Of a stretch of DNA of 32,264 nucleotides, positions 4,452 to 25,765 are shown in pieces. The stretch lies in contig DICP01000018.1 in NCBI GenBank assembly GCA_002417685.1, positions 11,057 to 43,320 on the forward strand, read 5' to 3'. Origin of the DNA: Candidatus Mesolinea sp. UBA5823 (GTDB lineage: Bacteria; Chloroflexota; Anaerolineae; Anaerolineales; Anaerolineaceae). The notes under the pieces are model-generated. The model searched no databases, was not told the origin of the DNA, and saw only the letters and a list, made by a program, of their open reading frames with translations. Numbering within the stretch: the stretch's first letter is position 1; every line of letters begins with the position of its first letter. The position numbers and the translations under genes were made by a program.

Positions 4452-4618
4452 AAATTTAGTGAGAATAAATGTGGTTATGAAAATATCATTTTCTCATCAT
4501 CATGAGGAAATGATTATGGTATCTCATAAGCGAAATCGATACATCAGTTCAAAGAAGTTAGTGCAAATGGGAGTTCGATCCGCAAAGTAATCTGCATAAT
4601 ATCAAATTCTCATTTGTT

Positions 4619-4627
4619 TGATATAAT
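4619..4627 (+). promoter_or_regulatory. Candidate extended -10 promoter (TGaTATAAT) for the AT-rich gene pair
   Basis: TGATATAAT at 4619-4627, GGAGA at 4640-4644, GTG start at 4653. No good -35 element. Confidence 0.4.
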
Positions 4628-4652
4628 CTAGCCTGATATGGAGAAAATGTAA

Positions 4653-6104
4653 GTGAATAAGAAAAATCTAGTTTTATCGATTCTATCAGTTGTGTGCGTT
4701 ATACTATTTCCTTGTTTCTTTCTCTATCTTCAGAACACAGGAATAGCGATTTTTAGTGATTTTTTGAATGTTGCCGGGAAATTTTTATTAGTTGGTCTTT
4801 CCTTGCTCGGCTTGAGTTACCTCATATTTCGTAAAATTGAGAAGGCTGCCTTATTCAGTAATGTTACTCTGCTCTTTCTATTATATTTTGCACTGATCGA
4901 AAAAGCTATTGTTGATAAGTTCCCTATGCTTTATTACTGGCATATCGCGTTAATTTGTTTGTTTTTAATTTTCCAGATTGGTTACTTAATCTACAATAAA
5001 GTAAATTTGAAGCTTGCCAATCAGATTAATCAGGTTTTTCTATTTATTTTCGCTGGTTTGATTTTATTTAACGGTATTATTTCTGTCCCTAAAGTGCTCC
5101 AAGCAGCATCAAACAAGCCACAGGAAGAAACCCATGAGAATGTAGAACAAGCAAACGTCGTCAATAATGACCCTCAAAAAGAACTACCCAATATTTATTA
5201 TTTTATTTTTGATGAGTATGCAGGTTTCGATAGCATTCAGAGATATTGCAATTATGACAACAGCGCCTTCTTTGATACCCTGGAGGATATGGGATTTGTT
5301 GTATCAAGGCATTCATTAAACTATACCAATGATACTTATACTGAGATCCCGAATCTATTGCAGTTGAACAGAATTAATAGCCCTTCAATGACGAAAGCAG
5401 ATAAACAAAGCACTGCAAGTAACCCGTTCTTACTGCAACTCATGAAAGAACATGGTTACACAATAAACGTACTTGATATGTATAGTTTTATTGATTTAGC
5501 TGTTGTTGATCTTTATTGGGATCCCCATTTTGTTACAACCCATGGATCGTTAGAATCATATGTTGTCAAGAATACATTTTATTATCCATTTTATGATCTT
5601 GATGGCTATGATAGAGAGATAAGGCACAGGTTAAATGCTTTTAAGTATTCTGAAGAGTCGAGTAAGATGGCAGACTCCAATCTATTCACCCTTGGTATGT
5701 TCTGGTTTCCTCATGAGCCATTTATATTCGATGAAAATGGCAATAAGACAAACGATGCTGATCATTCAAACCTTCGCGATATAGAACCATATCTGGCGCA
5801 ATACAAGTACGCATCAAAAAAAATAATTGAATTAGCCACTGAAATTATTAAGAATGATCCGAATTCAATCATTATTTTGCAATCCGATCATGGATATCGT
5901 TATCCTGATTTCTTAAAAAACCTGTATGGTATAGATATTTATGATATGGATGTCGAGTCACTTTACATGCGCAACATACTCAATGCTGTTTATTATCAAG
6001 GTCAGAACATTGATATAGATAATTATTCAGGAATAAATACCTTGAGAACGGTATTAAATAAATTACTGAATGCTAATTTTGAATTGATCGAACAGCCTAA
6101 ATAA
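4653..6104 (+). CDS. Polytopic membrane protein with an extracytoplasmic sulfatase-fold (alkaline-phosphatase superfamily, LtaS/EptA-like) transferase domain
   Basis: GTG start directly after an in-frame TAA. There are ~5 N-terminal hydrophobic helices. The catalytic-domain motifs are LPNIYYFIFDEYAG, FPHEPF and IIILQSDHGYRY. There is no C/S-x-P-x-R formylglycine motif, so this is probably not a true sulfatase. The gene is AT-rich. Confidence 0.75.
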   Translation: MNKKNLVLSILSVVCVILFPCFFLYLQNTGIAIFSDFLNVAGKFLLVGLSLLGLSYLIFRKIEKAALFSNVTLLFLLYFALIEKAIVDKFPMLYYWHIALICLFLIFQIGYLIYNKVNLKLANQINQVFLFIFAGLILFNGIISVPKVLQAASNKPQEETHENVEQANVVNNDPQKELPNIYYFIFDEYAGFDSIQRYCNYDNSAFFDTLEDMGFVVSRHSLNYTNDTYTEIPNLLQLNRINSPSMTKADKQSTASNPFLLQLMKEHGYTINVLDMYSFIDLAVVDLYWDPHFVTTHGSLESYVVKNTFYYPFYDLDGYDREIRHRLNAFKYSEESSKMADSNLFTLGMFWFPHEPFIFDENGNKTNDADHSNLRDIEPYLAQYKYASKKIIELATEIIKNDPNSIIILQSDHGYRYPDFLKNLYGIDIYDMDVESLYMRNILNAVYYQGQNIDIDNYSGINTLRTVLNKLLNANFELIEQPK

Positions 6105-6122
6105 GTTCATGAGATCTATGCT

Positions 6123-6653
6123 ATGAAAAAAATTAAAAACCCCGCTTACTGGTTAATCACAATTTTATTGCTTCTGCTTTTTGTCTTTGCGAATGACATT
6201 GCCTTAGCCATACCTTTAAAAGAAACATATCAATTAAAGAAAATTGAGCTAAATAAATACAATGAATTTGCAAAAAACTTTGACTTAAAAATCGAGTCTA
6301 TTTATACAAAACAAGACATATTTATTACGACTGAAATTAGTGGGTATGCCCTAATTCAGCCTGATCAGGCTAGTCCTAATAAGGCCATAAAACTGGTATT
6401 CTCTTCAGATGACAAACGCTACGAAGTTGATGCGTCCATAATTGATAGATTTAATCTAAACTCCTTATATCGTAATAAAGGTATTGTCGGTATCAATCAT
6501 GGCTTCATTACGCGATTTTCGCCATTAAAAATGGAAAACGGAGTCTATAAACTGTATATTTATTGTTATGAAAACGAAAACACAATTGGGTTCATGGATA
6601 CAAATCGATATTTCGAGAAGACCTATCGTACTTTCAAAGAGGTGAAGAAATAA
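6123..6653 (+). CDS. Small signal-anchored or secreted protein of unknown function
   Basis: 176-aa ORF starting 18 nt after the previous stop. The N-terminus is MKKIKNPAYWLITILLLLLFVFANDIALA (signal or anchor). It shares the AT-rich composition of the upstream gene. I recognise no family. Confidence 0.65.
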   Translation: MKKIKNPAYWLITILLLLLFVFANDIALAIPLKETYQLKKIELNKYNEFAKNFDLKIESIYTKQDIFITTEISGYALIQPDQASPNKAIKLVFSSDDKRYEVDASIIDRFNLNSLYRNKGIVGINHGFITRFSPLKMENGVYKLYIYCYENENTIGFMDTNRYFEKTYRTFKEVKK

Positions 6654-6723
6654 CCACGGCACCGTTTAGAAGCGTCAAACCTATTTTAAAGCTCCGTTGC
6701 ACCTTTCATTAAAGAGCTCATTA

Positions 6724-6745
6724 AAGGGCTGAGAAATCAGCCCTT
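6724..6745 (+). terminator. Perfect 9-bp stem, 4-nt loop hairpin after the AT-rich gene pair; no U-tract
   Basis: aagggctga-gaaa-tcagccctt at 6724-6745, 71 nt after the stop at 6653. The following sequence is gtcagttaataaaac, which is not T-rich. Confidence 0.35.
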
Positions 6746-6785
6746 GTCAGTTAATAAAACTGAATCCGGATGAGAATAGGGTTAG

Positions 6786-8216
6786 TTGATTTATAATATT
6801 AAACAATCTCACTACGTTGATGCATCTATGTCTAAAACAGAAACCGCAGTATCTAATAGCAACTCACGCAAAGCTCAAAAAGTGGTTTTGGCGTGCATAC
6901 TGCTTGCCTTTGCCATAGCTTCTATTTATGTGGCCCTCAATCTCGCCGAGGGCATCGTCCCAGACGAAAAGGCACACTTCATCTTCTCTAAAGTCTATGC
7001 CAGCACCTGGGGTATCCCACCTGATTCGCCTGAAACGTATGAGCTGGGTTGGTACATTGCCCATAACCCCTTCCTCTATCACTGGATTAATGGCCGCATT
7101 ATCAATCTGGTTCAGGTAATTAGCCCAACGGCGAGTGATTGGGATCTTTTAATTGTGCTGAGGCTTACAAGTGTGCTTTATTCGCTCGGTACACTCTATT
7201 TTTGTTATCTCCTTGCCAAAGAGCTAATCCGCAAGCCTTGGTGGCCACTCTTGCCGGTATTTTTGCTGGCTAATACGCTGATGTTCACATTTCTCTCAGG
7301 CGGGGTAAACTATGACAACTTAGTGAATTTGCTGTGCATAGCGGGGCTATATTTCCTCGTACGCGTGTTTACTGGCAAAGATTTCATCACGAATTCCTTG
7401 GCTTGGTTGGTTTTTATGTACGTTGGCTGCTTGTCTAAGTACACTGTTCTACCATTGGCACTCTTCAGCTTCATCGCTTGGTTGGTATTTACATTGCGCC
7501 AGCGCAAAGCTATCTTTCCGCTCCCCAAACTTACCAAAGGACAGACGGCTCTGCTAATTATTCTTATCTTCCTTATTGGCGGGAATTTGGCGATCTATGG
7601 CTATAACCTCGTGGTCTACCATGCGGTGCTGCCCTCTTGCGCTGATCTTCTACAACCGGAACAGTGCGCTTTGAGCCCATTTCACATCCGCTGGGAAAAA
7701 TATGGCTTAGGCCACAGGATGACCTTGATTGAAAGCATTCAAGCCGGTCATCCTGATCCAGTAACATATTTTGTTGAATTCTGGATCAAAGATATGCTGA
7801 CCAAAACTTATGGCATATTGGGGCATAAAACTTACTATCCGGCACACATTATCACTTTCTACCGGTTATTTTACTTAGGCGTGCTGCTGCTGGCTGCCCG
7901 CTATTGGCGACGCCCACCTTATGCCATTTGGAGCGCGGTTTTTATCATTTTAGGATACAGCCTGGTGGTTTTTTTGACCAATTACAACAGCGAACTGACT
8001 TATGGGTTCAAGCATTTCGCTCTGCAAGGCCGCTACCTTTTCCCCATTATTGGGCTTGTCTACGGCTTGGTCGGATATACCCAGAGCCAAATCAAAAACC
8101 GAACCGTGCAATTGGTGGTGCTCGCACTAACATTAATTTTGTTCTTTGTGGGTGGACCGATTAAATTCATCACGCGCTATGAAGGCGTGTTTTCCACCTG
8201 GTTCCTTCCCCATTAG
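6786..8216 (+). CDS. Polytopic membrane protein, GT-C/DUF2142-like (putative lipid-carrier-dependent glycosyltransferase or polymerase)
   Basis: 476-aa ORF with more than 10 predicted TM helices. The first extracytoplasmic loop carries EGIVPDEKAHF, an acidic motif in the position of the GT-C DE/DD motif. The listed start is TTG at 6786; an ATG at 6828 (MSKTETAV...) is an equally plausible start. Confidence 0.6.
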   Translation: MIYNIKQSHYVDASMSKTETAVSNSNSRKAQKVVLACILLAFAIASIYVALNLAEGIVPDEKAHFIFSKVYASTWGIPPDSPETYELGWYIAHNPFLYHWINGRIINLVQVISPTASDWDLLIVLRLTSVLYSLGTLYFCYLLAKELIRKPWWPLLPVFLLANTLMFTFLSGGVNYDNLVNLLCIAGLYFLVRVFTGKDFITNSLAWLVFMYVGCLSKYTVLPLALFSFIAWLVFTLRQRKAIFPLPKLTKGQTALLIILIFLIGGNLAIYGYNLVVYHAVLPSCADLLQPEQCALSPFHIRWEKYGLGHRMTLIESIQAGHPDPVTYFVEFWIKDMLTKTYGILGHKTYYPAHIITFYRLFYLGVLLLAARYWRRPPYAIWSAVFIILGYSLVVFLTNYNSELTYGFKHFALQGRYLFPIIGLVYGLVGYTQSQIKNRTVQLVVLALTLILFFVGGPIKFITRYEGVFSTWFLPH

Positions 8217-9849: not shown

Positions 9850-10325
9850 GCATTGCCTACCTAGGGCTTGGAACTAATCTGGGCGACCGTAAACAAAACA
9901 TTAGCAAAGCCATTGAAGCAATCTCGCTGAAAATGAGTATCTTTAAGCAATCTTCACTCTACGAAACAACAGCCTGGGGGTACACAAACCAACCCGACTT
10001 TCTCAACCAGGTGATTCAGGTTGAGACTAATTTAAGCCCGCTCCGCTTATTGAATTTCCTCAAGAAAACTGAGGTAGAGCTGGGACGAGTCGAAAACTTT
10101 CGCTATGGACCCCGCCTGATCGACATCGACATCCTTTTTTACGATGATTTGATAAAAACTACAAGTCGCCTAGAAATCCCTCACCCAAAAATCCCAGAAA
10201 GGGCTTTTGTTTTAGCGCCTCTAAATGAGATCGCGCCTGGATACGTTCACCCAGTTTTGAAGAAAACGATAGCAGAACTGTTGGCAGAGCTTCCGAATAA
10301 GACTGGAGTATGGCTATGCGAGTAG
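9846..10325 (+). CDS. folK: 2-amino-4-hydroxy-6-hydroxymethyldihydropteridine pyrophosphokinase (HPPK)
   Basis: IAYLGLGTNLGDR, SSLYETTAWGY..QPDFLNQV, RYGPRLIDIDILFYDD and HPKIPERAFVLAPLNEIAP are classic HPPK blocks. ATGA overlap with hom. Confidence 0.9.
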   Translation: MSIAYLGLGTNLGDRKQNISKAIEAISLKMSIFKQSSLYETTAWGYTNQPDFLNQVIQVETNLSPLRLLNFLKKTEVELGRVENFRYGPRLIDIDILFYDDLIKTTSRLEIPHPKIPERAFVLAPLNEIAPGYVHPVLKKTIAELLAELPNKTGVWLCE

Positions 10326-12121
10326 CGCTGGCTTTTTTGGCGGTCTGTCTGCCTGGTTTGGCTTGGTGGCTTTGGCTGGGAGACCATAAACAAGATGGTG
10401 GCGAGGCTCTGGCGCGAATATTTGCGGTTAGTGCTAGTGTCATAACTCTCGGAGCCTTGGCCTTTTATACGGTCAGGCTCAAAATTACCCCCCTGGCAAT
10501 CGGATTATTTCTAAGCTTATTCATTGGGCTAGTATTGACCGGCTTGATCCACAGTTGGAAAACCGCATTCAACAAGACTTGGTTAATCGCTTTGGTTATG
10601 CTGGCTATTTTTACCATCTGGCGAATTTGGCAAGCACGGGAATTGGTCTTCCCCAATTGGGTCGACTCTCAACACCATGTCTTGATCATCCGCAAGATTA
10701 TAGAAAATGGCGGGTTGCCTAGCACGCTCGAACCTTATCTGCCTGGACCTTTTTACTATCACTTTGCATTCCATGCGGTTACTGCGTTTTTCTCAGCATT
10801 GAGCGGTTTAGCTCCGGAAGGGGCTGTTTTGGTTTTGGGGCAAGTGATAAATGCCTGCGTTGGAATCTCAGTTTATGCTCTGGCGAAGGCTATAGGCAAA
10901 GATTGGCGGATTGGGGCGATGGCAGCGTTTTTTGTCACCTTCGCGACCAAAATGCCGGGTTACTACCTGACTTGGGGGCGCTATACTCTCCTAACGGGGG
11001 TAATGATATTACCGGTCGCAATGGCGGAGGTGATGCAGGTGAAGGACCGTCATGAACACTGGTGGCAAATGACAGGATTGACCCTCCTAACCGCCGGCAC
11101 CCTGCTCAGCCATTACTTCACTGCTTTTTTGCTCGCGCTCTTCCTGGTCATACTTGCCTTGCTTTGGCTTGTGCGCAGCCTAAAAGCCAAGCAGTTCCAG
11201 TGGAAAGAGTTGGCTGCGCTGGCGCTGCCGGCTTTGGGTGGACTGGTTTTAGTTTCGCGCTGGTATTGGCGCGTGTTCCGCTATTCACTCGGAGTCTTCC
11301 ACCCAGCTGTCACTCTCTCAGCAGGAGCGGCTGGAGACGTCAATCAGTGGCATTACTATTGGACGCTGGTGGGTCCATACAGCGGATATGTCGTTCTGGC
11401 ATTGGCGCTTATCGGCGCGCTAGCAAGTCTTTTCCACCAGAAAACGCGTGGGCTCGCCTTATGGGCCCTGCTCGTGGCATTTTTGGCATTGCCATTAGGG
11501 CTGCACATAGCACCCTTCCGCAGTGACCACTTTGCGCTCGTGCTATTTTTACCAGCCTGCAGCTTAGCCGCCTTAGGCTTGGAGTGGGCAAGCGGTCTGT
11601 TCCGGCGGCCATGGCCGCCGGCGGGGATTTCAGCTGGCATCACAGCTCTCGTGGTTTTTATGCTTATCTTTGGCGCTCAACAAACTTGGAACGTGGTCAA
11701 TCCGGACACCATCCTGGCAGACCAGGCCGACCTGGCAGCCTTGCAATGGATAGACACTCATACGCCTCAGGATGCGCGTTTCTTTATCAACACCACGCCT
11801 TGGGGGTATGAGCTTTACCGCGGCGTAGATGGAGGCGCATGGATTATGCCCTACACTGGCCGCTGGTCGCTGGCACCGACTATTTTTTACACTTTCGGCG
11901 GAGATAAGGCATTCAAAGCTCAAATGAGCGCTTGGGGAGAGAAAGCTGCTAACCTCAAAACTTGCGACGAAGACTTTTGGGGACTGGTGCAGGAGGCTGA
12001 TCTCCAATACCTCTACATTCGCAAGGGCAAAGGCAGCCTGCAGGCTGACGCATTGCGAGACTGCACCGGCCTCAAACAGCTTTATTCTGCCGGCGGTGTG
12101 AGTATTTGGTTGATTGAGTAG
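10310..12121 (+). CDS. Large polytopic membrane protein with a C-terminal extracytoplasmic domain (GT-C-like layout; function unknown)
   Basis: 603-aa ORF overlapping folK by 16 nt. It has ~13 hydrophobic helices. An early loop reads NWVDSQHHVLIIRKIIENGGLP. The soluble C-terminal ~150 aa include ...ALQWIDTHTPQDARFFINTTPWGYELYRGVDGG.... I recognise no firm family. Confidence 0.6.
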   Translation: MAMRVALAFLAVCLPGLAWWLWLGDHKQDGGEALARIFAVSASVITLGALAFYTVRLKITPLAIGLFLSLFIGLVLTGLIHSWKTAFNKTWLIALVMLAIFTIWRIWQARELVFPNWVDSQHHVLIIRKIIENGGLPSTLEPYLPGPFYYHFAFHAVTAFFSALSGLAPEGAVLVLGQVINACVGISVYALAKAIGKDWRIGAMAAFFVTFATKMPGYYLTWGRYTLLTGVMILPVAMAEVMQVKDRHEHWWQMTGLTLLTAGTLLSHYFTAFLLALFLVILALLWLVRSLKAKQFQWKELAALALPALGGLVLVSRWYWRVFRYSLGVFHPAVTLSAGAAGDVNQWHYYWTLVGPYSGYVVLALALIGALASLFHQKTRGLALWALLVAFLALPLGLHIAPFRSDHFALVLFLPACSLAALGLEWASGLFRRPWPPAGISAGITALVVFMLIFGAQQTWNVVNPDTILADQADLAALQWIDTHTPQDARFFINTTPWGYELYRGVDGGAWIMPYTGRWSLAPTIFYTFGGDKAFKAQMSAWGEKAANLKTCDEDFWGLVQEADLQYLYIRKGKGSLQADALRDCTGLKQLYSAGGVSIWLIE

Positions 12122-16321: not shown

Positions 16322-16519
16322 GCCCCTTTTTAAGGTGGGCTATATAAGGCTGAGGTACCTTTTTTTGGTATTTGGAGGTTAGTTACCTCTGCGGCAATCG
16401 ACATAATTGCGGTATGATAGGTGCAAGCCGAATAAGCGGCGCTTGGGAAATTTAGTTGCTAATTAATCGCTGAGCGCTCCCTTGCTTTGATATTTTTATA
16501 TGCCGACCTACAGGTATCG

Positions 16520-17641
16520 ATGATCGTCTGCTATTTTGGAACCTACCGCCAGAATTACTCCCGCAACAAGAATATGATTGCGGCTTTGCGCTCTGTGGGC
16601 GTCGAGGTTAAGGAGTGCCATGTGCCTCTCTGGCACGGCGTGGAGGATCGCGTCAAGGTTACCAGCGGTGGGTGGAAAAAACCGTCCTTCTGGTGGCGGG
16701 TAATCAAAACTTACTGGCAGCTTTATTGGAAATATACGCGCATTGGAGAATACGATATCTTGATGGTTGGTTACCCCGGTCAGTTCGATATCCTCCTCGC
16801 CAGGATGTTAGCTAATAGAATGCATAAACCTTTGGTCTGGGATGTGCTTATGTCTATCTATCTGGTAGCATTGGAGCGTCAGCTTGATCAAGTAGAAGGC
16901 TCTTCAATTAATTTCATCCGTAAAGCCGAAGCTAAGGCTCTAAAAAAGCCTGATATGCTTATTCAGGACACTCAATCCTACGTTGACTGGCTGTGTGAAA
17001 CGTATCAAATCTCCTCTGATAAATTTCGCCTCTTGCCTATTGGTGCTGATGATCGTATTTTCAAACCTCAACCAGAGGGAAACAATCCAGATGGGCTCTT
17101 CCGCGTGCTGTATTACGGTTCCTATATTCCCAACCACGGTGTCAGCGTCATCTTATGTGCGGCTGAGATTCTACGCGGCCATAGCGATATTCTATTCGTA
17201 ATGATCGGAGAAGGTCCCGAAAGGGCTGGTGCCGAACGCTTTGTGCAGCAAAAAGGCTTGACCAATATCCAGTTTCAAAGTTGGGTTCCACAGGATGAGC
17301 TGCCTAGCCGGATCGCGCAAGCCGATGTCTGCCTGGGTGCTTTTGGCCAAACGCCACAATCCCTCATGACGGTGCACAACAAAGTATATGAAGGCATGGC
17401 CATGGGCAAGCCGGTCATTACTGGCCAAAGCCCCGCGATTGCTGCCCAGTTTCACTCGGGCGAAGAGCTCTTGGCCTGCCCGCGAACACCGCAAGGGCTT
17501 GCTGAGAGCATCCTGCAGCTCAAAGAAGACCCAGCATTTCGGGCAAGATTGGGTGTCAATGCCTTGCACACTTTTCAGGAGCGTTATTCCCTGCAGAGCC
17601 TAGGGAAGCTCCTCTTAGGTTACCTCCATGAATTTGACTGA
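16520..17641 (+). CDS. GT4-family (GT-B) glycosyltransferase
   Basis: MIVCYFGTYRQNYSRNKNMIAAL... N-terminus and C-terminal ...VHNKVYEGMAMGKPVITGQSPA.... I prefer ATG 16520 over the listed TTG 16487. Confidence 0.8.
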   Translation: MIVCYFGTYRQNYSRNKNMIAALRSVGVEVKECHVPLWHGVEDRVKVTSGGWKKPSFWWRVIKTYWQLYWKYTRIGEYDILMVGYPGQFDILLARMLANRMHKPLVWDVLMSIYLVALERQLDQVEGSSINFIRKAEAKALKKPDMLIQDTQSYVDWLCETYQISSDKFRLLPIGADDRIFKPQPEGNNPDGLFRVLYYGSYIPNHGVSVILCAAEILRGHSDILFVMIGEGPERAGAERFVQQKGLTNIQFQSWVPQDELPSRIAQADVCLGAFGQTPQSLMTVHNKVYEGMAMGKPVITGQSPAIAAQFHSGEELLACPRTPQGLAESILQLKEDPAFRARLGVNALHTFQERYSLQSLGKLLLGYLHEFD

Positions 17642-18890
17642 TAAGCCGGTTTCAACACCCAAACGTAGCCGTTTTCTGAACATGTTAGCGGGCTACGGCA
17701 GCGCCAATGCCGCTGCTCAGTTCATGAAGATGCTCTTCATGCTCATCATGGCGCGCTACTTTGGGCTGGAAGATTATAGTGATTATGTTGCAGCCTATTC
17801 ATTAGCTTCTTTCACTGCCATTTTTTTCAACCTTGGTTTGGATACTTGGCTGCTGCGAGAGGGCTCATTCCAAGAGAATTGGAAGCTCTCGACGCAAAAG
17901 GTGCTTAGCTTGAAAGCGAGTATCGGTCTTATATGGGCAGGATTGTTGATCGGGTTAGCACCATCGCTACGCCCTGACCTATTTGGCTTTGGCCTCCTGG
18001 CGCTGTGTGTGGCGGATGTGTGGTTTGATTCCTTGCTAATAACCATGTTGGCTGTCCTTAATATTAAACGAGATATCAAAGCATACTCAGTTTCCATTTT
18101 GTTGCTACGCGGGTTAAAGCTAATTGTTTTGTTGGTTATGATTGCGGTGGGGAGCCGGTCTGTTATGCTGATTGCAGGTTTGAGGGCAGCTATTGCCGGC
18201 GGACTTGCTGTTGCTGTTTTTTTGATGCTCCGACTGGATTTTCGTTTTGCCAGGAGGCAAGAAAGCCTGCGTATGCTGCGCGATTCGAGAGCCTACACTT
18301 ACTCAGAGTTTTTTTCAGTAATCTATATGCAAGCCGATATTAATTTACTTACGATGCTACAAGGCAAGGTTATGGCTGGCATCTATTCCCCTGCTCTGAG
18401 TGTGATCAATGCTTTATTTATCATTCCCAGCTCAGTTTACACCTTTTCAATCCCCACTCTTTCGCGGACTTATCACGAAGCTCCGCAAAGGCTCCCCGCA
18501 GCAGCGCGTAAATTGCTGGCAGGGATTACCTTAATGGGAATAGTGCTTTTTGCGGGGGTCGGTTTGCTTGGGGATGACCTGGTACGGTTGCTGCTGGGTG
18601 CGGAATACGAGACCACCGGGCAGTTAATCACCATGCTCAGCCCAGTATTGCTGCTCAAGTGCTTGGAATTTGGGCTGGCAAGCGTGATTGTAGCGCTCAA
18701 TAAACAAAAAGACCGCATCTTCCCGCAAATGATTGCAGCGGCAATGAACGTGGGGCTCAACCTCTGGCTGATCCCTTTATATGGCGTGTTTGGAGCAGCC
18801 AGAGTGTATGTGATCAGCGAAGTTGTGCTCTTTTTGGGTTATGGGATAATTGTATTTAGGTCCATAAGGCAGCCAGAATATGCAGATTAA
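17628..18890 (+). CDS. Wzx-like polysaccharide flippase (MOP superfamily)
   Basis: 420 aa with ~12 TM helices. The layout and length are typical of Polysacc_synt/MOP flippases. It overlaps the upstream GT by 14 nt. Confidence 0.7.
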   Translation: MNLTDKPVSTPKRSRFLNMLAGYGSANAAAQFMKMLFMLIMARYFGLEDYSDYVAAYSLASFTAIFFNLGLDTWLLREGSFQENWKLSTQKVLSLKASIGLIWAGLLIGLAPSLRPDLFGFGLLALCVADVWFDSLLITMLAVLNIKRDIKAYSVSILLLRGLKLIVLLVMIAVGSRSVMLIAGLRAAIAGGLAVAVFLMLRLDFRFARRQESLRMLRDSRAYTYSEFFSVIYMQADINLLTMLQGKVMAGIYSPALSVINALFIIPSSVYTFSIPTLSRTYHEAPQRLPAAARKLLAGITLMGIVLFAGVGLLGDDLVRLLLGAEYETTGQLITMLSPVLLLKCLEFGLASVIVALNKQKDRIFPQMIAAAMNVGLNLWLIPLYGVFGAARVYVISEVVLFLGYGIIVFRSIRQPEYAD

Positions 18891-20184
18891 CTCCAAAAAC
18901 GGCTCGCCCGTTGTGTTGATTATCAATTTTCACTCCACCCGCAATGCGGGCGACCTGGCCTTGCTGCTTTCCAATCGTCAATTGCTGCAAGAAGCTTTCG
19001 ACAACCCCAGAATCATTGTCTCAGCAAACTGGCCTGATGAGGAAGCTTACGCAGAGTATGGCTTCGAAGTGGTGCCGTCGCCTTGGGCCCTTGCCGGGGT
19101 GCGGCCCGAAAACCCACTACCTAAGCAGGTTACGAATCTAATCGGTACCTACACTGCCCTTTGGCGGCATCGTCATCATCAAACGCCCCTCAAAGGCCAG
19201 CCGGATCTACCTTGGAAGCGCCTATATGCGGCTTATGCTGCTGCCGATGTGGTTGTGGGGGTCTCGGGTAATCAGTTTTACTCCAGCGGCAAGTATGGCT
19301 GGCCCTTCCCGGCCACCTATGCTTCGGTGAGCTTGGCGCATGCATTCCAGAAACCGCTCTATATACTGCCGCAATCGATTGGGCCGTTGCGCCGCCAGTG
19401 GGAACGCCGAATGCTGGCAAAAGGCTATGGACGAGCACGGCGCATTTATTTACGGGATAGTATCTCCTTACGATTAGCTGGTGAACTGGGTTTTCCAATG
19501 GAGAATGTGAGCTACGCGCCTGATCCAGCTTTTGACCTGGCACCGGCTGATCCTATGGAAGCAACCAATCTTTTGCAAGCTTGGGGTGCAGACATGACTA
19601 AGCCGAAGCTGGGCGTCACTGTTATTGCTCCGATGGGACGGTCATTTGTTACCGCTGAAGTAATGAATTATTACACCGTACTGGAGCGGACGCTCACACG
19701 TTTCTTACAATGCTATACAGCACAGGTGGTGCTCTTCAATCAGGTTTCGGGGCCAACACCCAACGAAAATGATGGCGAAGCTGCGGCTGCGCTCTGCTCC
19801 AGGCTAAAAGCCCAAAGCTTGGAGGCTGTGCACATCAACCAGGTGGTTAGACCAGCCCAGCTCAAAGCCAGCTATGGCTTGATGCAAGCTTTTTTAGCCT
19901 CGCGCTTGCACTCTGGCGTATTTGCGCTGGGCATGAACATCCCCACGGTTTTCATCGGCTATCTTTCCAAGACCCGCGGGATGTTACAGGCGTTAGAGCT
20001 GGAAAACAACGTGATTGACCTCAGGGATCTCAAGGAGCAGGATTTGTGGGAAAAGCTGAGCTACACTTGGGAGCATGCGACGCAAGAGCGAAGGGCTCTA
20101 GAAGTAAAGATGCCGGCAATTAAGGCTGCAAGTCACGCTCCCGCTCCATCCATACGAGAGGATTTTTTTCGTTACCATGGCTGA
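18880..20184 (+). CDS. Polysaccharide pyruvyl transferase family protein (CsaB/WcaK-like)
   Basis: N-terminal VLIINFHSTRNAGDLALLLS (N.GD motif) and C-terminal ...ASRLHSGVFALGMNIPTVFIGY..K. These match the family as I remember it. It overlaps the flippase gene by 11 nt. Confidence 0.7.
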   Translation: MQINSKNGSPVVLIINFHSTRNAGDLALLLSNRQLLQEAFDNPRIIVSANWPDEEAYAEYGFEVVPSPWALAGVRPENPLPKQVTNLIGTYTALWRHRHHQTPLKGQPDLPWKRLYAAYAAADVVVGVSGNQFYSSGKYGWPFPATYASVSLAHAFQKPLYILPQSIGPLRRQWERRMLAKGYGRARRIYLRDSISLRLAGELGFPMENVSYAPDPAFDLAPADPMEATNLLQAWGADMTKPKLGVTVIAPMGRSFVTAEVMNYYTVLERTLTRFLQCYTAQVVLFNQVSGPTPNENDGEAAAALCSRLKAQSLEAVHINQVVRPAQLKASYGLMQAFLASRLHSGVFALGMNIPTVFIGYLSKTRGMLQALELENNVIDLRDLKEQDLWEKLSYTWEHATQERRALEVKMPAIKAASHAPAPSIREDFFRYHG

Positions 20185-21340
20185 GATCCACATCTTGCAA
20201 TTGGTCAAGGGTTTAGATATTGGCGGGGTAAATGGCGGCGCTGAGCGTTTCTGTGTGGATCTTTCGCAGCAGCTCACTCAAATGGGATATCAAGCCACTA
20301 TTTGCGCGTTTTTCCGCATGCACACACCAGCAGAGGCTAAAACCCTGCAAGCGCTGGAAGCTACCAGTCTGAATGTTATCCAGCTGGCAGAATGGCGCGG
20401 TAACGGCGCGCTTTCTTCTTACCGCCAGGCATTGCATGGGCTAGAGAATTACGTTCAAAGCCACCCCGTTCAAATTGTACAAAGCCATTTTCAGTTAGGG
20501 ACCCTGGCAGCCTTGCGCCTAAAGCGTCAGCATCCCGGCTTGATTACCCTGCGCACGGTGCATAACGTGCGGGAGTGGGAGCAAACCCCAGCTGGCCGAT
20601 GGAAAGCCCATATCTTTACTGAAAGAGTTTTCCCTGCCCGGCTGGATGCCGAAGTTGGCGTCTCACAAGCCATCGTTGAGCAACTGGGGGCACATCCTGG
20701 AGCTAAGCAACACCCGGAAAAAACCCATCTGATCCCTAATGCCATCGACCTGCCCGAAAAACTGCCGGAGATAAAGCCGCCTAGGGCTGAAGGCCAAGGC
20801 TTTGTCATTGGCAGTGCAGGCCGCCTGGCTGAGCAAAAGGGTTATCGCTATTTAGTTGCGGCGATGCCGGAAGTACTCGAGGTAATCCCAGGTTGCGAGC
20901 TGCACTTGGCTGGCGATGGAAATCAAAAAGCAGAGCTTATTGCTCTGGCTCAGGAGTTGGAGGTGGCTGAGCATGTGAAGCTTAGGGGATATCTTGGGAA
21001 TATTCCCAATTTTTTGAATGAGTTAGATTTGTTTGTGTCCTCTTCTCTTTGGGAAGGCTTACCAACGGTTATCTTGGAGGCGATCGTGGCTGGAGTGCCT
21101 GTGTTAGCAACAGATATTGCCGGCAATCGCGAGCTTATCCAGGATAGAAGAACTGGCTGGCTGGTGCAGCCGGCTGATGCACACGCATTGGCGCGAGCCA
21201 TCGTACATGCATATCACCACCCTGAACTTCGTCAACAATTTGCGCGGGAGGCACGCCGCATCTTGCCTCAATTTTCCATTCAAACCGTGACGGAGCAATA
21301 TGCTCAGCTTTACCAACGTCTCTTGGCAGGTGCAGTATGA
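20177..21340 (+). CDS. GT4-family glycosyltransferase (paralogue A)
   Basis: ILQLVKGLDIGGVNGGAERF and the E-x7-E region SSLWEGLPTVILEAIVAGVPVLATDIAGNRELI. 8-nt overlap with the upstream gene. Confidence 0.88.
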   Translation: MAEIHILQLVKGLDIGGVNGGAERFCVDLSQQLTQMGYQATICAFFRMHTPAEAKTLQALEATSLNVIQLAEWRGNGALSSYRQALHGLENYVQSHPVQIVQSHFQLGTLAALRLKRQHPGLITLRTVHNVREWEQTPAGRWKAHIFTERVFPARLDAEVGVSQAIVEQLGAHPGAKQHPEKTHLIPNAIDLPEKLPEIKPPRAEGQGFVIGSAGRLAEQKGYRYLVAAMPEVLEVIPGCELHLAGDGNQKAELIALAQELEVAEHVKLRGYLGNIPNFLNELDLFVSSSLWEGLPTVILEAIVAGVPVLATDIAGNRELIQDRRTGWLVQPADAHALARAIVHAYHHPELRQQFAREARRILPQFSIQTVTEQYAQLYQRLLAGAV

Positions 21341-22476
21341 GTGAAACCCTGCATGTTTTGCAACTATTGAAGGGTTTGGATATCGGCGGCGCTAGCGGCG
21401 GCAGCGATAAGTATGGCTTCGAGCTGAGCTTAGCCTTGAAGAAAGCTGGCGTGCATGTGGCGGTGGGTTGTTTCAACCAATTTGGAACTGCCACGGAGCA
21501 GGATAATTTGGCTAAACTAAAAGCTGCCGGCATTCCCAATATTATCTTGGAAGAAGGAAGCACATTCTCTAAGCTGCATTCGCTTGATCTACAAAATTTC
21601 TGCCGTGATAATCAGATTGATATCGTCCACAGCCACTTCCCTGTAGGGAACCTGGCGGGCTCGCATCTTAGGGCGCAGAACGCAGTTAAAGCAGTGGTAC
21701 GAACAGCCCACATTTCTAAAGAATGGGGTGACGGGGTGATCGCCTGGGTCTGCCGGCAGGTCTTTTCGGGGTTCCTTTATCCCTTATTGACCGATCAGGT
21801 GGTGGGGGTTTCACAGGCGATTACTGACCAGCTCAACCACACACTTGGTGGAAGACTTTCCCACCACAAAGCGATAACCATCTATAATGGCATCCCGGAA
21901 CGATGGTTTACTCAGGGCAGCGCTCCGCTCCAGAAAGAGCTCCATTTGATTGGGGCGGCGGGGTTATTGATCGAACGTAAGGGTTTTGATCATCTAATTC
22001 GCGCCATGCCGGCAATTCTCACAGAATATAGTGATGCGCGCTTGATGATTTTAGGTGAGGGCCCGCAGCACGCAGTGCTAGAAGCTTTGATTGCTGAGCT
22101 GCATCTGGAGCAAAAAGTTAAATTGCTTGGAAATCAATCCGATCTGCCCAATTGGCTAAGCAGAATGGACATCTTCGTGTTGCCTTCTTGGGTGGAAGGT
22201 TTACCTACTGTTCTCCTGGAAAGCATGGCTTGCCAAACGCCTGTGATTGCGACGGACATCCCAGGGACCCGTGAACTTGTTCTGGATGGCCAGACCGGCT
22301 GGTTAGTTCAGCCCGGTTCGGTTGAGCAAATCTCCGAAGCAGTAAAGCGTGCTTTTTCACAACGCGAGGCGTATGTGTGCATCCAAGCGCAAGCCTATGC
22401 CTGGGCACAGAATTTTACGATTGAGCGTGCCGTGCAGCAATACTTAGCACTTTATCAACAGCTAGTTAAGGGTTAA
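21337..22476 (+). CDS. GT4-family glycosyltransferase (paralogue B)
   Basis: VLQLLKGLDIGGASGGSDKY and PSWVEGLPTVLLESMACQTPVIATDIPGTRELV. It is collinear with the preceding gene. ATGA overlap. Confidence 0.88.
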   Translation: MSETLHVLQLLKGLDIGGASGGSDKYGFELSLALKKAGVHVAVGCFNQFGTATEQDNLAKLKAAGIPNIILEEGSTFSKLHSLDLQNFCRDNQIDIVHSHFPVGNLAGSHLRAQNAVKAVVRTAHISKEWGDGVIAWVCRQVFSGFLYPLLTDQVVGVSQAITDQLNHTLGGRLSHHKAITIYNGIPERWFTQGSAPLQKELHLIGAAGLLIERKGFDHLIRAMPAILTEYSDARLMILGEGPQHAVLEALIAELHLEQKVKLLGNQSDLPNWLSRMDIFVLPSWVEGLPTVLLESMACQTPVIATDIPGTRELVLDGQTGWLVQPGSVEQISEAVKRAFSQREAYVCIQAQAYAWAQNFTIERAVQQYLALYQQLVKG

Positions 22477-22936
22477 AGTCAAAATCCAGACTGATTTCGC
22501 CTATATCCAAGATCTTGCCAGCTTCGGTGTGCCAAACCTTGGCTTTGCCTTCCTCGTTTTCGATGATTTTATAAGCTGCGTCTGGGCTGCCTAATACCAG
22601 CACATAATCCATAGGGTTAATTTCAGGAATAATAAAATATCCATTTTGATCCGTAACCCCACCAGGGCTAAAAGCGGCGTCTAGCACATAGGCGCCCTGC
22701 TCAGGATTATCTGTGGCATAGTAAACCTCTGCCAAGCGGACAGTTAGGTTTTGGTAAGGTTGGCCGGAAGTATTGACAACCCGTCCAATCACAGTAGTTT
22801 TATCTGCCGAGGGGGCTGCATAAGTTTGCGTAGGCGTAAGTGTTGCGGTCGGAGATTCAATTCCGCTGCAAGCTGCTAGCAAAATGAGGCAAAAAAAGGA
22901 AAGAAGAGATATTCGACCAAAATAATTCTTTTTCAT
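22466..22936 (-). CDS. Lipoprotein with a carboxypeptidase-regulatory-like beta-sandwich domain
   Basis: Signal peptide plus lipobox (SFFCLILLAAC|SG). VIGRVVNTSGQPYQNLTVRL resembles CarboxypepD_reg-type domains. The 3' end overlaps the convergent GT4 gene by 11 nt. Confidence 0.7.
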   Translation of the reverse strand: MKKNYFGRISLLSFFCLILLAACSGIESPTATLTPTQTYAAPSADKTTVIGRVVNTSGQPYQNLTVRLAEVYYATDNPEQGAYVLDAAFSPGGVTDQNGYFIIPEINPMDYVLVLGSPDAAYKIIENEEGKAKVWHTEAGKILDIGEISLDFDFNP

Positions 22937-23061
22937 TATGTCTTTGTACCATCCTTAAAAGTCAAGATTGAAACGCGGGTCAATTTCTTTTTTGGTTCAA
23001 ACCTATTTCAGAAAAAATAATCCCAATGGGCTATTGATTTGACGTCCGTTATCTATTAAAT

Positions 23062-23087
23062 TATCTGTCAGATAGAAAAATTATACT
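23062..23087 (+). promoter_or_regulatory. 13-bp palindrome TATCTGtCAGATA next to a TATACT -10 box: candidate operator plus promoter of the repeat-protein gene
   Basis: Palindrome at 23062-23074, with a further TTATCT copy at 23049-23054. TATACT at 23082-23087, AAGGAG at 23094-23099, ATG at 23110. Confidence 0.4.
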
Positions 23088-23109
23088 CTAAAGAAGGAGC
23101 AAGAAAAAT

Positions 23110-24507
23110 ATGAAAAATAAGCTATTGTGTGCACTTGTTGTTGTCATGATGGTGGTAACCGTTTTTGGGGCTTCCCCGGTTAAAGCTGCTGCGTATGGTA
23201 CCAGCTTTACAACCTCCATCACCTATCAAAACGTGGGAACAGATACTGCGACAGTCTCCCTGGAGTTCTATGCTGAAGGCGATGGAACCCCGATCATTAT
23301 ACCTCGCCCAGATCTTGAGCCCATGGCCGGCACTTCCATTTTCGTTGGATCGCTTGGCGATTTAGATCCAGGCTTTAAAGGCTCAGCCGTGATGGTTTCT
23401 AACCAACCCCTTGTTGCCACCTTGGTGCAGATTCCTGCCCCGGCGAGCGGCGTAAAGGTACGGCCTTTGTCCAATGGGTTTACTGCCGGTTCTGACTATA
23501 TTTTGGTTCCTACCGCTCTACTAAACACATTCAATGCTAACACCATCATTTCGGTCCAGAATGTGGATAGCGTAGCAGCTGACTTCCGACTGGTGTTCGT
23601 CCCAGTGAGTGGTTCCAACATCGTCGTAGAAGTTGAAGATGTTCCAGCCTACGCTACCAAGTATTTTGATTTGGCCCAAATGCCTGATTTCACTGGCCCA
23701 TTCAATGGCTCTGTGCAGGTCTTCGCTTTCAAGGCCGGCACCACTGATCCAGGCGCAGCTGTGGCTTCCGCAATGGAGTTACGCACAAATGCCACCGGTG
23801 CTTCTGCTTTTGAGGCGACGAATGACTTCGCTACCACAGTTTATATGCCATCGGCACTTTGTCTCTTCAATGGTGTTCAGACCTCTTCCTATGCTGTTCA
23901 GAACACGACTGATGCAGACGTGACCGTTTCGGTTACTTATGATAGTGGAGTTGTGGATGGCCCATATACCCTCGCCCCTGGTGCAAAGCAAAGCTTTAAT
24001 GCCTGCGATGGTGGCAATGACCCAGGCTATATCGGATCAGCTGTAATCGAAGCGACTGGCGATGTAGTTGCCATGGGCAAAGTGTTCGGCGGTGGACTTT
24101 CCACAGCCTTCTTGGGCTTCACGAGCGGTGCTTCCAAAGTGGCTCTGCCCTACATCCGCTGGACGACTGAACACTGGTATGATGGTACCCGCCAGAGAGC
24201 TTTCATTGCCATTCAAAATGTGGGTGCTGATCTACCTGCTGACGCTGTTACTGTGAAGTACTATGACAAAGCTGGCGTTTTGGTAGGCACTGACACACTG
24301 GGCGCTATTCCTTCTGGTGCAAAAGTAAATTCCAACGCCGGTAACATCGGAGCGGCAGAATTTGGTTACTATACAGATGGCACATTTGGTGGTTCCGCAA
24401 TTGTTGAAGGCCCTGCAGGCAGTGCGTTAGCGGTCATCGTCCGCATCCAGACTCGTGTTGGTTCAACGTCCGTTGCCGAAGACTACTCTGGGATCGCAAT
24501 TCAGTAA
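23110..24507 (+). CDS. Secreted protein built from four ~110-aa internal repeats (unknown family; candidate abundant surface protein)
   Basis: Signal peptide MKNKLLCALVVVMMVVTVFGASPVKA|AA. Four modules are anchored by h-x-QN (residues 40, 150, 264, 369) and F.GSA/GSV (91, 200, 309, 428). There is a strong RBS and a perfect 13-bp-stem terminator downstream. Confidence 0.85.
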   Translation: MKNKLLCALVVVMMVVTVFGASPVKAAAYGTSFTTSITYQNVGTDTATVSLEFYAEGDGTPIIIPRPDLEPMAGTSIFVGSLGDLDPGFKGSAVMVSNQPLVATLVQIPAPASGVKVRPLSNGFTAGSDYILVPTALLNTFNANTIISVQNVDSVAADFRLVFVPVSGSNIVVEVEDVPAYATKYFDLAQMPDFTGPFNGSVQVFAFKAGTTDPGAAVASAMELRTNATGASAFEATNDFATTVYMPSALCLFNGVQTSSYAVQNTTDADVTVSVTYDSGVVDGPYTLAPGAKQSFNACDGGNDPGYIGSAVIEATGDVVAMGKVFGGGLSTAFLGFTSGASKVALPYIRWTTEHWYDGTRQRAFIAIQNVGADLPADAVTVKYYDKAGVLVGTDTLGAIPSGAKVNSNAGNIGAAEFGYYTDGTFGGSAIVEGPAGSALAVIVRIQTRVGSTSVAEDYSGIAIQ

Positions 24508-24554: not shown

Positions 24555-24590
24555 AAAGAGGCTGCCAATTTCTGGCAGCCTCTTTTCTGT
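24555..24590 (+). terminator. Rho-independent terminator
   Basis: aaagaggctgcca-atttc-tggcagcctcttt is a 13-bp perfect stem followed by tct..t. It lies 48 nt after the stop at 24507. Confidence 0.85.
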
Positions 24591-24931
24591 CTAAATGAAG
24601 TATTAGAATGCTCTCACGGATATTTTTGGAATCACTTTATCACATTCGGAATAGAAATGGTATACAACACGCGGAGGCGGCAAAGCGCGTCCAGCGAGGA
24701 GGAAGCTGCGTCCTGGCCGCCCACAGCCCTGACCCTGAACGCTGTATTACAAAAAGCGCCACACTGAGATGAATTATTACAGTAAAGTAATTCCGCCAAA
24801 AAGGAATAAAAAAGCCGAATTTGGCTATTGCTTTCCAGTTCTTGATTTGTTAATTGTCTGTACCTCTTATTCTGCGTACGATTGATTTTATCTCCTCATC
24901 CGTTGCACTAAATTCTTGAGACTAGGTTCCA

Positions 24932-25765
24932 TCAAAACAACACATTGGAAAGATCCGCGCGGTATTGGCGCACGTCCGGATGATGCTCACCCAGGACCTC
25001 GAGCAAGCCCAAATAAACCTCGCGCACTTCATCATCCCGGTAATGCTTATCCCTGCGCAAAATATCCAAAAAACCATCCAAGGCTAATTGGATCTTGCCT
25101 TGTTTGGCTAAGCGCAAGCTGTTGCGATACGCCGCTTCAAGCGCATCCTTAGGTGGGTCTTGTTGCTTCTCCAACCAAAGGTAAGCATCCGCAACAGGCT
25201 TGAGTATTTGCGCTGCATTGAACTCATAGCTGGCTGGGAAGGTTGCCAGAATCCCTTTAGCCTCCCATGCGCGTCCCTCAAGGAGTAGCAGCCGAACAAG
25301 AGCCAGCAAACCAGCAGGGCTCTCCGGGTTGTTCGCCAGATATTGGCGCAGGGCGTCTTCTGCACCGTCAAGATCGCCTAAAAGCATTAAGCTTTTTCCT
25401 TTCTCCAAGAGGAGATCACCAGTTTCGGGCATAATGCGGCGGATAAAGGCTCGCAGGTTGGGTTCAGAAAGCACACCCGTAAACTCAGAAACGATGCGCC
25501 CATCCACAAAGGTTTTGACGGTTGGTACCGACTTGACTTTGAGGCGCTCAGCTAATTTGGGTTGTTCATCCACATTAACTCGCGCCAATCGAAAAGCGCC
25601 ATCGGCTTCCTCAGCAAGTTTGGCTAACAGCGGTGATAGCACCCGGCAAGGGATACACCAAGGTGCCCAAAATTCAAGGACAACCGGTGTATGAGATGAG
25701 TAACTCACTACTTCGTAATCGAAGCTTTCATCGCTAATATCGATGATATTTGCATCAGCCATCAT
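24932..25765 (-). CDS. Thioredoxin-domain protein with a C-terminal TPR-like domain (YbbN/CnoX-like architecture, but with an intact CxxC)
   Basis: EFWAPWCIPCRVLSPLLAKLAEE is a thioredoxin WCxxC motif. The ~170-aa helical C-terminus (...LLLEGRAWEAKGIL...LAKQGKIQLALDGFLDIL...) is typical of TPR-fused thioredoxins. Confidence 0.85.
   Translation of the reverse strand: MMADANIIDISDESFDYEVVSYSSHTPVVLEFWAPWCIPCRVLSPLLAKLAEEADGAFRLARVNVDEQPKLAERLKVKSVPTVKTFVDGRIVSEFTGVLSEPNLRAFIRRIMPETGDLLLEKGKSLMLLGDLDGAEDALRQYLANNPESPAGLLALVRLLLLEGRAWEAKGILATFPASYEFNAAQILKPVADAYLWLEKQQDPPKDALEAAYRNSLRLAKQGKIQLALDGFLDILRRDKHYRDDEVREVYLGLLEVLGEHHPDVRQYRADLSNVLF

Follow-up and report, generated by a model that had tools for sequence, protein, structure and literature searches.

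Gene P0001, at positions 23110 to 24507 of the forward strand in a 32,264-nucleotide (nt) stretch of contig DICP01000018.1 of Candidatus Mesolinea sp. UBA5823 (the window, by which we mean that whole stretch), encodes a protein of 465 amino acids (aa) with a signal peptide and four repeats. We judge it on balance probable that this repeat protein is the major secreted, S-layer-like surface subunit of a filamentous Anaerolineae bacterium, retained on a pyruvylated glycan of the wall; at present it is the strongest candidate for the protein coat seen on filamentous Chloroflexota. The family is uncharacterized, and it would build a partnership of coat protein and pyruvylated glycan on a tetrad of ASRAH-type domains instead of on SLH (S-layer homology) domains.

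How the Chloroflexota envelope is built has been a matter of dispute for decades. Cryo-electron tomography (cryo-ET) reveals extra envelope layers in the phylum, including a lattice-like protein layer in Litorilinea; Chloroflexota are without lipopolysaccharide (LPS) and BAM genes, and none of the extra layers has yet been assigned a component (PMC7332563, PMC13319060). In Litorilinea aerophila the shared outer layer bears a lattice-like "putative proteinaceous layer … consistent with an S-layer," of unclear identity, and the archaellum, Tad pili, and grappling hooks of this organism have all been assigned to other proteins (PMC13319060). We found a true orthologue of the repeat protein in this species (P0297 = UniProt A0A540VDF2 / WP_141611114.1, gene FKZ61_15795; 47 % identity over the full length, E 7e-114), with the same four repeats and the same adjacent glycan module in a host that differs in being an aerobic thermophile of another class. 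In the proteome of an L. aerophila surface fraction, A0A540VDF2 stands second of 1,272 proteins both in summed intensity and in copy number, and third in weight (PMC13319060 Supplementary Table 2), and its log10 intensity-based absolute quantification (iBAQ) value of 7.02, set against 5.49 for EF-Tu, corresponds to ~34 times EF-Tu. The fraction was obtained by shearing the cells, pelleting at 200,000 g, banding in CsCl, and passage over a 100-kDa filter (PMC13319060), and because of these steps a free 49-kDa monomer would be lost. A0A540VDF2 is the top non-enzyme candidate in this surface fraction. Its abundance there supports the proposal of an earlier annotation of the window, made from its letters alone (the first-pass annotation), that the gene encodes an envelope component. 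The text of PMC13319060 does not mention the protein, whose abundance appears in the supplementary table only; a literature search by accession for the L. aerophila and Herpetosiphon aurantiacus orthologues found no paper, and the L. aerophila orthologue does not occur in the supplements of an earlier archaellum paper. The same fraction contains other high-ranked proteins that the paper leaves undiscussed: a pair of very large S8 peptidases (182 and 265 kDa), a 55-kDa DUF5666 protein, and a second L. aerophila protein labeled "CARDB" (FKZ61_08920, 58 kDa; copy rank 79). They too are candidates for the envelope layer, in place of the repeat protein or alongside it.

The transcript record points to a gene expressed at an exceptional level. 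At least 24 metatranscriptome runs contain it, some of them just 14-35 Mb. Depths were taken from RNA contigs placed over 14 kb around the repeat gene; they are k-mer depths from the assembler, added up over strains with at least 90 % identity, and are semi-quantitative. In 7/7 metatranscriptomes from separate studies, the repeat gene is the best-covered feature of its neighborhood, far above the glycan operon beside it, and in the three runs that we benchmarked its mRNA is level with the EF-Tu mRNA (tuf) of the same genome:

Run X2: repeat gene 1768-3482, glycan operon 15-40, tuf 1258-2995
Run X3: repeat gene ~10, glycan operon 0, tuf 13-116
Run X9: repeat gene ~22, glycan operon 0, tuf 1-31

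Since tuf is more conserved and gathers more cross-species contigs, the comparison with EF-Tu is conservative. Four further studies display the same isolated peak on the repeat gene, and run X1, labeled METAGENOMIC, has flat depth and serves as a DNA-like control. The direction of the result is unanimous across runs, though semi-quantitative, and the strong expression that the first-pass annotation had read from the gene's signals was borne out, with no sign of the low expression that would have spoken against a structural role. The convergent thioredoxin-TPR gene downstream (24932-25765, reverse strand) is the second best-covered feature in several metatranscriptomes (122-151 in X2, 28-34 in X10).

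The expression signals noted earlier are present in the window as follows:

23110 to 24507, forward: repeat-protein gene P0001, an open reading frame (ORF) of 465 aa
22937 to 23109, forward: intergenic region with the putative promoter and 5' leader of the repeat gene, shared with the divergent lipoprotein gene (from sequence)
23094 to 23099, forward: ribosome-binding site AAGGAG, read off the sequence, 10 nt 5' of the ATG
24555 to 24592, forward: intrinsic terminator with a perfect 13-bp stem, a 5-nt loop, and a T-rich tail

An automated terminator scan missed the 13-bp stem, whose arms lie at 24555-24567 and 24573-24585, and folding confirmed it (z-score -4.5; 0/200 shuffles fold as well). 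In run X13 an RNA contig begins at 23086 and a contig stops at 24597, with RNA depth dropping past the terminator, and these two ends bracket the repeat-gene transcript. Because its upstream neighbor is divergent and its downstream neighbor convergent, the gene is monocistronic, as had been claimed. A sigma-70 consensus scan upstream of it found no forward-strand promoter, an Rfam search of the window matched no RNA family, and the gene is single copy in its own genome.

A second body of evidence comes from gene order. The first-pass annotation had pointed to a divergent lipoprotein gene and a neighboring glycan locus, and our searches filled in both:

22466 to 22936, reverse: divergent lipoprotein of 156 aa with a lipobox Cys (LLAAC), a Pro/Thr-rich spacer, and a CarboxypepD_reg-like beta-sandwich (Pfam)
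16487 to 22476, forward: glycan operon adjoining the repeat-gene locus (Pfam, NCBIfam), made up of the next five genes
16487 to 17641, forward: family 4 glycosyltransferase (GT4)
17628 to 18890, forward: Wzx flippase
18880 to 20184, forward: CsaB-like pyruvyl transferase
20177 to 21340, forward: GT4
21337 to 22476, forward: GT4
10310 to 12121, forward: DUF6541 multipass membrane protein (Pfam)

Across 85 loci from several Chloroflexota classes, in which the repeat protein is 42-89 % identical, the small divergent lipoprotein is adjacent in 74, a GT4 gene in 71, the pyruvyl transferase in 70, and the Wzx flippase in 65; the downstream thioredoxin-TPR and L,D-transpeptidase genes are adjacent in 0-1 of the same 85. 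In some Caldilineae the glycan module is inverted and lies downstream, yet it is still adjacent. In L. aerophila the Wzx/pyruvyl-transferase/GT4 module adjoins the orthologue and the partner lipoprotein sits at a neighboring contig end. The lipoprotein partners carry a lipobox in 72/74 cases; a spacer rich in Pro/Thr (20-110 aa) and a conserved ~100-aa beta-sandwich domain come after it. The pyruvyl transferase matches PF04230 (E 2e-30), and its best NCBIfam model is CsaB (TIGR03609), at 82.7 bits, under the 213-bit equivalog cut-off and ahead of WcaK; the flippase is closest to EPS-type (exopolysaccharide-type) Wzx in NCBIfam. The DUF6541 protein is a possible accessory member of the module, its gene lying within 9 kb in 32/61 loci with enough upstream sequence. 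The conserved adjacency of a pyruvyl-transferase module across several classes, together with a predicted fold of sugar-binding type, lends support to the earlier idea that the repeat protein is the partner of an anionic glycan.

The sequence of the protein itself is that of a secreted, internally repeated chain:

23110 to 23187, forward: signal peptide of Sec type, residues 1-26, with predicted cleavage after VKA (sequence features, family conservation)
23191 to 23514, forward: repeat 1, residues 28-135, an ASRAH-like beta-sandwich (hhalign, single-repeat model, Foldseek)
23515 to 23859, forward: repeat 2, residues 136-250 (hhalign, joint repeat alignment, repeat profile)
23860 to 24174, forward: repeat 3, residues 251-355, holding the invariant pair C251/C299
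24175 to 24504, forward: repeat 4, residues 356-465, which has diverged furthest and weakly resembles FlgD_ig

The cleavable signal peptide that had been proposed is backed by features of the sequence: MKNK, a hydrophobic core, VKA|AA, and the motif PVxAAAYGT, which the family conserves. In the AlphaFold2 model residues 2-19 form a helix, residues 20-26 are disordered, and the fold begins at about residue 30. The repeat protein has no membrane or covalent anchor. The mature chain is rich in alanine, glycine, valine, and threonine (A 12.8, G 11.2, V 10.7, T 9.6 %), with cysteines only at 251 and 299 (C7 sits in the signal peptide); both are invariant in 32 homologues and are likely to form a disulfide. 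Of the sequence anchors described earlier, QN stands at residues 40, 150, 264, and 369 and GS[AV] at 91, 200, 309, and 428, exactly as reported, with an additional GSA at 437. Single-sequence comparisons of one repeat with another reached moderate significance only, and profile-profile comparison with hhalign, applied to four segments cut from the 32-sequence family alignment, confirmed the four ~110-aa repeats, giving E-values of 1.4e-10 (repeats 1 and 2), 1.2e-8 (1 and 3), 7e-8 (2 and 3), 3e-5 (3 and 4), and 1.4e-4 (1 and 4), the pair 2 and 4 being the one of the six that was not significant. The Q, the N, and the G of GSA are invariant across the 28 repeat copies of a joint alignment. In four other Chloroflexota genomes a profile of the repeat found exactly four matches in exactly one ORF each, its sole other match there being one short fragment, so the module belongs to this family alone and is never shuffled. 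The same search was tried as a link to the amidase-fused ASRAH tetrads and gave none at the level of sequence: the profile matched the family member's own repeats only.

The first-pass annotation had seen a superficial likeness to CARDB beta-sandwiches, a label that UniProt also gives to orthologues, and this resemblance did not hold up: the CARDB hidden Markov model (HMM; PF07705) matches neither P0001 nor the L. aerophila orthologue at its gathering score and finds just 2/28 isolated repeats, at best with E 0.045, so that the UniProt label has no HMM support. Foldseek with a model of a single repeat instead returned, as all of its probability-1.0 PDB matches, TM1070 (1nc7; template-modeling [TM] score 0.66-0.68, 21-24 % identity, root-mean-square deviation ~3 Å) or the transducer of the sensory rhodopsin from Anabaena (ASRT; 2ii7/2ii8/2ii9, TM 0.53-0.68). 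According to these models each repeat is an ASRT/TM1070-like (ASRAH) 8-stranded beta-sandwich, with membership at the level of fold only. The whole-chain AlphaFold2 model is confident (pLDDT, its per-residue score, 91.5; pTM, its predicted TM score, 0.87), and a pTM of 0.87 implies that the four sandwiches are predicted to form one rigid 45-kDa body. Searched as a whole chain, the model has TM1070 as its only confident domain match and no multi-domain match in the PDB, where the query-normalized TM is at most 0.19. ASRAH domains have been proposed to bind sugars, acting as homotetramers or as single-chain dyads and tetrads, and the superfamily counts among its members tetrads from Roseiflexus, Chloroflexus, and Herpetosiphon that are secreted and fused to an amidase (PMC2739507). 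With the whole repeat protein as query, Pfam, NCBIfam, and the PDB sequences returned nothing significant, and no clear enzymatic family, which would have told against a structural protein, came to light. The repeat profile did not retrieve 1NC7 or 2II7 from the PDB sequences either; its best match was CBM2, at a noise-level E of 0.62. The sole full-length structural neighbor is FirrV-1-C4 (BFVD Q6XLX4) of Feldmannia irregularis virus a, a brown-alga phaeovirus, which aligns over 480 columns (Foldseek E 1.8e-9; TM 0.51 by query, 0.46 by target) and differs in being a eukaryotic-viral protein with 11 % identity.

From these data we propose the following model, in which docking on the glycan, self-assembly into a lattice, and the lipoprotein's part as a tether are our own reconstruction. 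After export, the single-chain tetrad would dock through lectin-like clefts onto the pyruvylated polysaccharide exported by the neighboring operon, and the docked protein would then self-assemble to form the continuous coat that cryo-ET has shown. The lipoprotein conserved along with it, with its spacer of variable length, could act as a membrane tether or an assembly factor. Together, coat protein, lipoprotein, and pyruvylated glycan might replace the SLH-domain/pyruvylated-glycan anchoring of other monoderm bacteria. A bolder extension, which we hold only tentatively and think rather less likely than the coat function itself, is that ASRAH-tetrad protein, lipoprotein, and CsaB-like pyruvylated glycan constitute a Chloroflexota-specific, SLH-independent surface-layer system, one that would build the enigmatic outer or protein layer and so give these cells a diderm-like look without outer-membrane genes.

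Several known systems offer points of comparison. Bacillus anthracis Sap/EA1 and Paenibacillus alvei SpaA are SLH-domain S-layer proteins seated on a secondary cell-wall polymer pyruvylated by CsaB. The system described here likewise has a very abundant secreted protein coupled genetically to a CsaB-like pyruvyl transferase and wall-glycan synthesis, and the presence of LytR-CpsA-Psr (LCP) ligases, of which this genome has five genes, counts as a further likeness. One LCP gene lies on the contig of the locus (G000:C51:55651-56091), ~12 kb past the window end. Unlike those S-layer proteins, the repeat protein has no SLH domain, its candidate binding module is an ASRAH-type tetrad, and it is far more conserved; no SLH domain was found genome-wide, in a search whose control was positive in 4 reference genomes. 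The Sulfolobus SlaA/SlaB pair, a two-component archaeal S-layer with a membrane-anchored stalk, also combines an abundant canopy-type protein with a smaller partner encoded beside it, which is anchored in the membrane and has a long spacer. There is no homology between the two systems, and the putative partner here is a bacterial lipoprotein that is missing from the sheared L. aerophila fraction. Finally, the ASRAH superfamily (ASRT/TM1070, DUF1362) includes tetrads fused to an amidase in Chloroflexi and lipoproteins bearing a dyad in Actinobacteria (PMC2739507), which share with our protein the 8-stranded beta-sandwich, the tetrad, secretion, and a link to glycosyltransferase genes; the repeat protein differs in having no amidase domain, no H/C signature, and no sequence-profile link, and in being stand-alone and extremely abundant.

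A range of observations weighs against a lattice-forming coat anchored on an anionic glycan. In 57/67 loci the repeat protein is conserved more strongly than any other gene there, and it remains 44-47 % identical between classes, a constancy out of keeping with classical S-layer proteins, which diverge much faster. Its spread is patchy: strong full-length matches occur in 11/201 sampled Chloroflexota genomes, and 0/13 same-order genomes match at E <= 1e-10. The isoelectric point (pI) of the orthologues runs from 4.2 to 8.9; net charge is not conserved, so that no conserved basic surface to receive an anionic glycan is evident. The L. aerophila surface fraction is crude, with glutamine synthetase holding first rank, and the partner lipoprotein A0A540VE20 was not detected in it, an absence that fits a tether retained in the membrane and gives no support to a tight complex. 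The semi-quantitative nature of the RNA depths belongs in the same account. As for the fold, no DUF1362 match was obtained by HMM for the repeat protein or for single repeats, and the ligand residues of ASRT (the H and C of the SHEshChhN signature) are not present in the repeats, which show (T/S/A)(Y/V/I)QN at this position, where only the terminal Asn could correspond. The non-ASRT families of the ASRAH superfamily likewise replace the H and the C (PMC2739507).

Conservation, patchiness, the missing lipoprotein, variable charge, and the crude fraction are the reasons why a lectin or matrix role remains the main rival. On this account the repeat protein would be an abundant, secreted, multivalent lectin or matrix protein that cross-links pyruvylated exopolysaccharide in a sheath or in the matrix of a biofilm and has no ordered lattice of its own. 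Four sugar-binding-type domains within one rigid body would suit such a task, as would the tight linkage to a glycan module that depends on a Wzx flippase nearest to the EPS type; high conservation is better suited to a ligand-constrained lectin than to an exposed S-layer, and matrix aggregates would pellet with sheared material too. We nevertheless consider this account unlikely, since the lattice-like layer of L. aerophila needs a subunit, for which the orthologue is the top non-enzyme candidate in the fraction, and a transcript as plentiful as that of EF-Tu is more usual for a stoichiometric coat protein.

We give less credence still to the view that the neighboring operon makes an O-glycan attached to the repeat protein, rather than its anchor, with anchoring achieved by other means. 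S-layer glycosylation (slg) clusters adjoin S-layer genes in Geobacillus and Paenibacillus, and the arrangement here would resemble them. Conserved synteny and a Ser+Thr content of 17-25 % would be in keeping with such a role, and DUF6541, which has a faint match to the glycosyltransferase PgfM2 and is often in the module, could be the oligosaccharyl transferase. Against this, Pfam and NCBIfam reveal no recognizable O-oligosaccharyltransferase of Wzy_C or O-antigen-ligase type in the locus, and the domains have the fold of sugar binders. An O-glycan would in any case be compatible with the coat function and does not exclude it. A non-structural extracellular role as enzyme, inhibitor, or nutrient-capture protein, to which one might be drawn by faint Pfam alpha-amylase inhibitor matches in some members and by the invariant polar residues scattered over all four repeats, is very improbable given that Pfam, NCBIfam, and PDB hold no enzymatic or binding-protein family match, that the composition is low in charged residues and rich in A/G/T/V, that the four-domain architecture is fixed and never shuffled into other proteins, and that both expression and surface-fraction abundance are so high.

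If the repeat protein is the coat subunit that we favor, it would bear directly on the long debate over the Chloroflexota envelope, for which its family is a concrete, testable candidate. Members occur in cultured L. aerophila, H. aurantiacus, and Thermanaerothrix solaris, so the outer-layer question is directly testable, and the confident structural model can be fitted into tomograms. The conserved three-part module of coat protein, lipoprotein, and pyruvylated glycan suggests anchoring without SLH domains. The repeat gene is apparently among the most highly transcribed of abundant Anaerolineae in digesters and activated sludge, which bears on floc and granule surface chemistry and on phage receptors.

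The family comprises more than 865 homologues of conserved length, all labeled "hypothetical," and its length is fixed at ~460-540 aa (550 clusters at 50 % identity). Carriers in the Anaerolineaceae include, among named genomes, Ca. Mesolinea, Thermanaerothrix solaris, Bellilinea, and Longilinea, and further carriers belong to Caldilineaceae, Ardenticatenia, Thermoflexales, Promineifilaceae, Roseiflexaceae, and Herpetosiphon (H. aurantiacus DSM 785). Our check turned up no named orthologue from Roseiflexus castenholzii or Chloroflexus, and the family's distribution therefore neither conflicts with nor tests the cryo-ET finding of no S-layer there. A second full-length paralogue, 59-60 % identical and outside the glycan module, is present at four loci (L001, L028, L029, L030); that of L001 stands alone beside rpsT, with long intergenic regions on either side. 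A distant subfamily of ~25 % identity (ORFs of 470-530 aa; L098 7918-9875; L100) is found in same-genus and same-family genomes without the core family, and these distant paralogues also keep a small-lipoprotein-like gene beside them. Members at 55-60 % identity in metagenome-assembled genomes (MAGs) labeled Melioribacter sp., Ca. Methanomethylicaceae archaeon, and Pelotomaculum sp. lie on short contigs, and these non-Chloroflexota attributions are probably binning errors rather than transfers.

Two further observations concern the history of the glycan locus. A low-GC island (0.35-0.36, against ~0.50) spans window positions 4001-7000 inside it, and the two ORFs of the island (4653-6104 and 6786-8216, ~480 aa each) match nothing in Pfam or NCBIfam; they may be horizontally acquired genes for a Wzy-like polymerase or ligase. 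Comparison of window positions 16487-24507 with the corresponding locus of Ca. Mesolinea sp. UBA7927 (L019) uncovers a mosaic of divergence, in which identity is 85-95 % for Wzx, two GT4 genes, and the lipoprotein but lower for the repeat protein (73 %), the pyruvyl transferase (58 %), and one GT4 (66 %). This pattern could reflect serotype-like replacement of coat-protein and glycan-modifying genes between close relatives.

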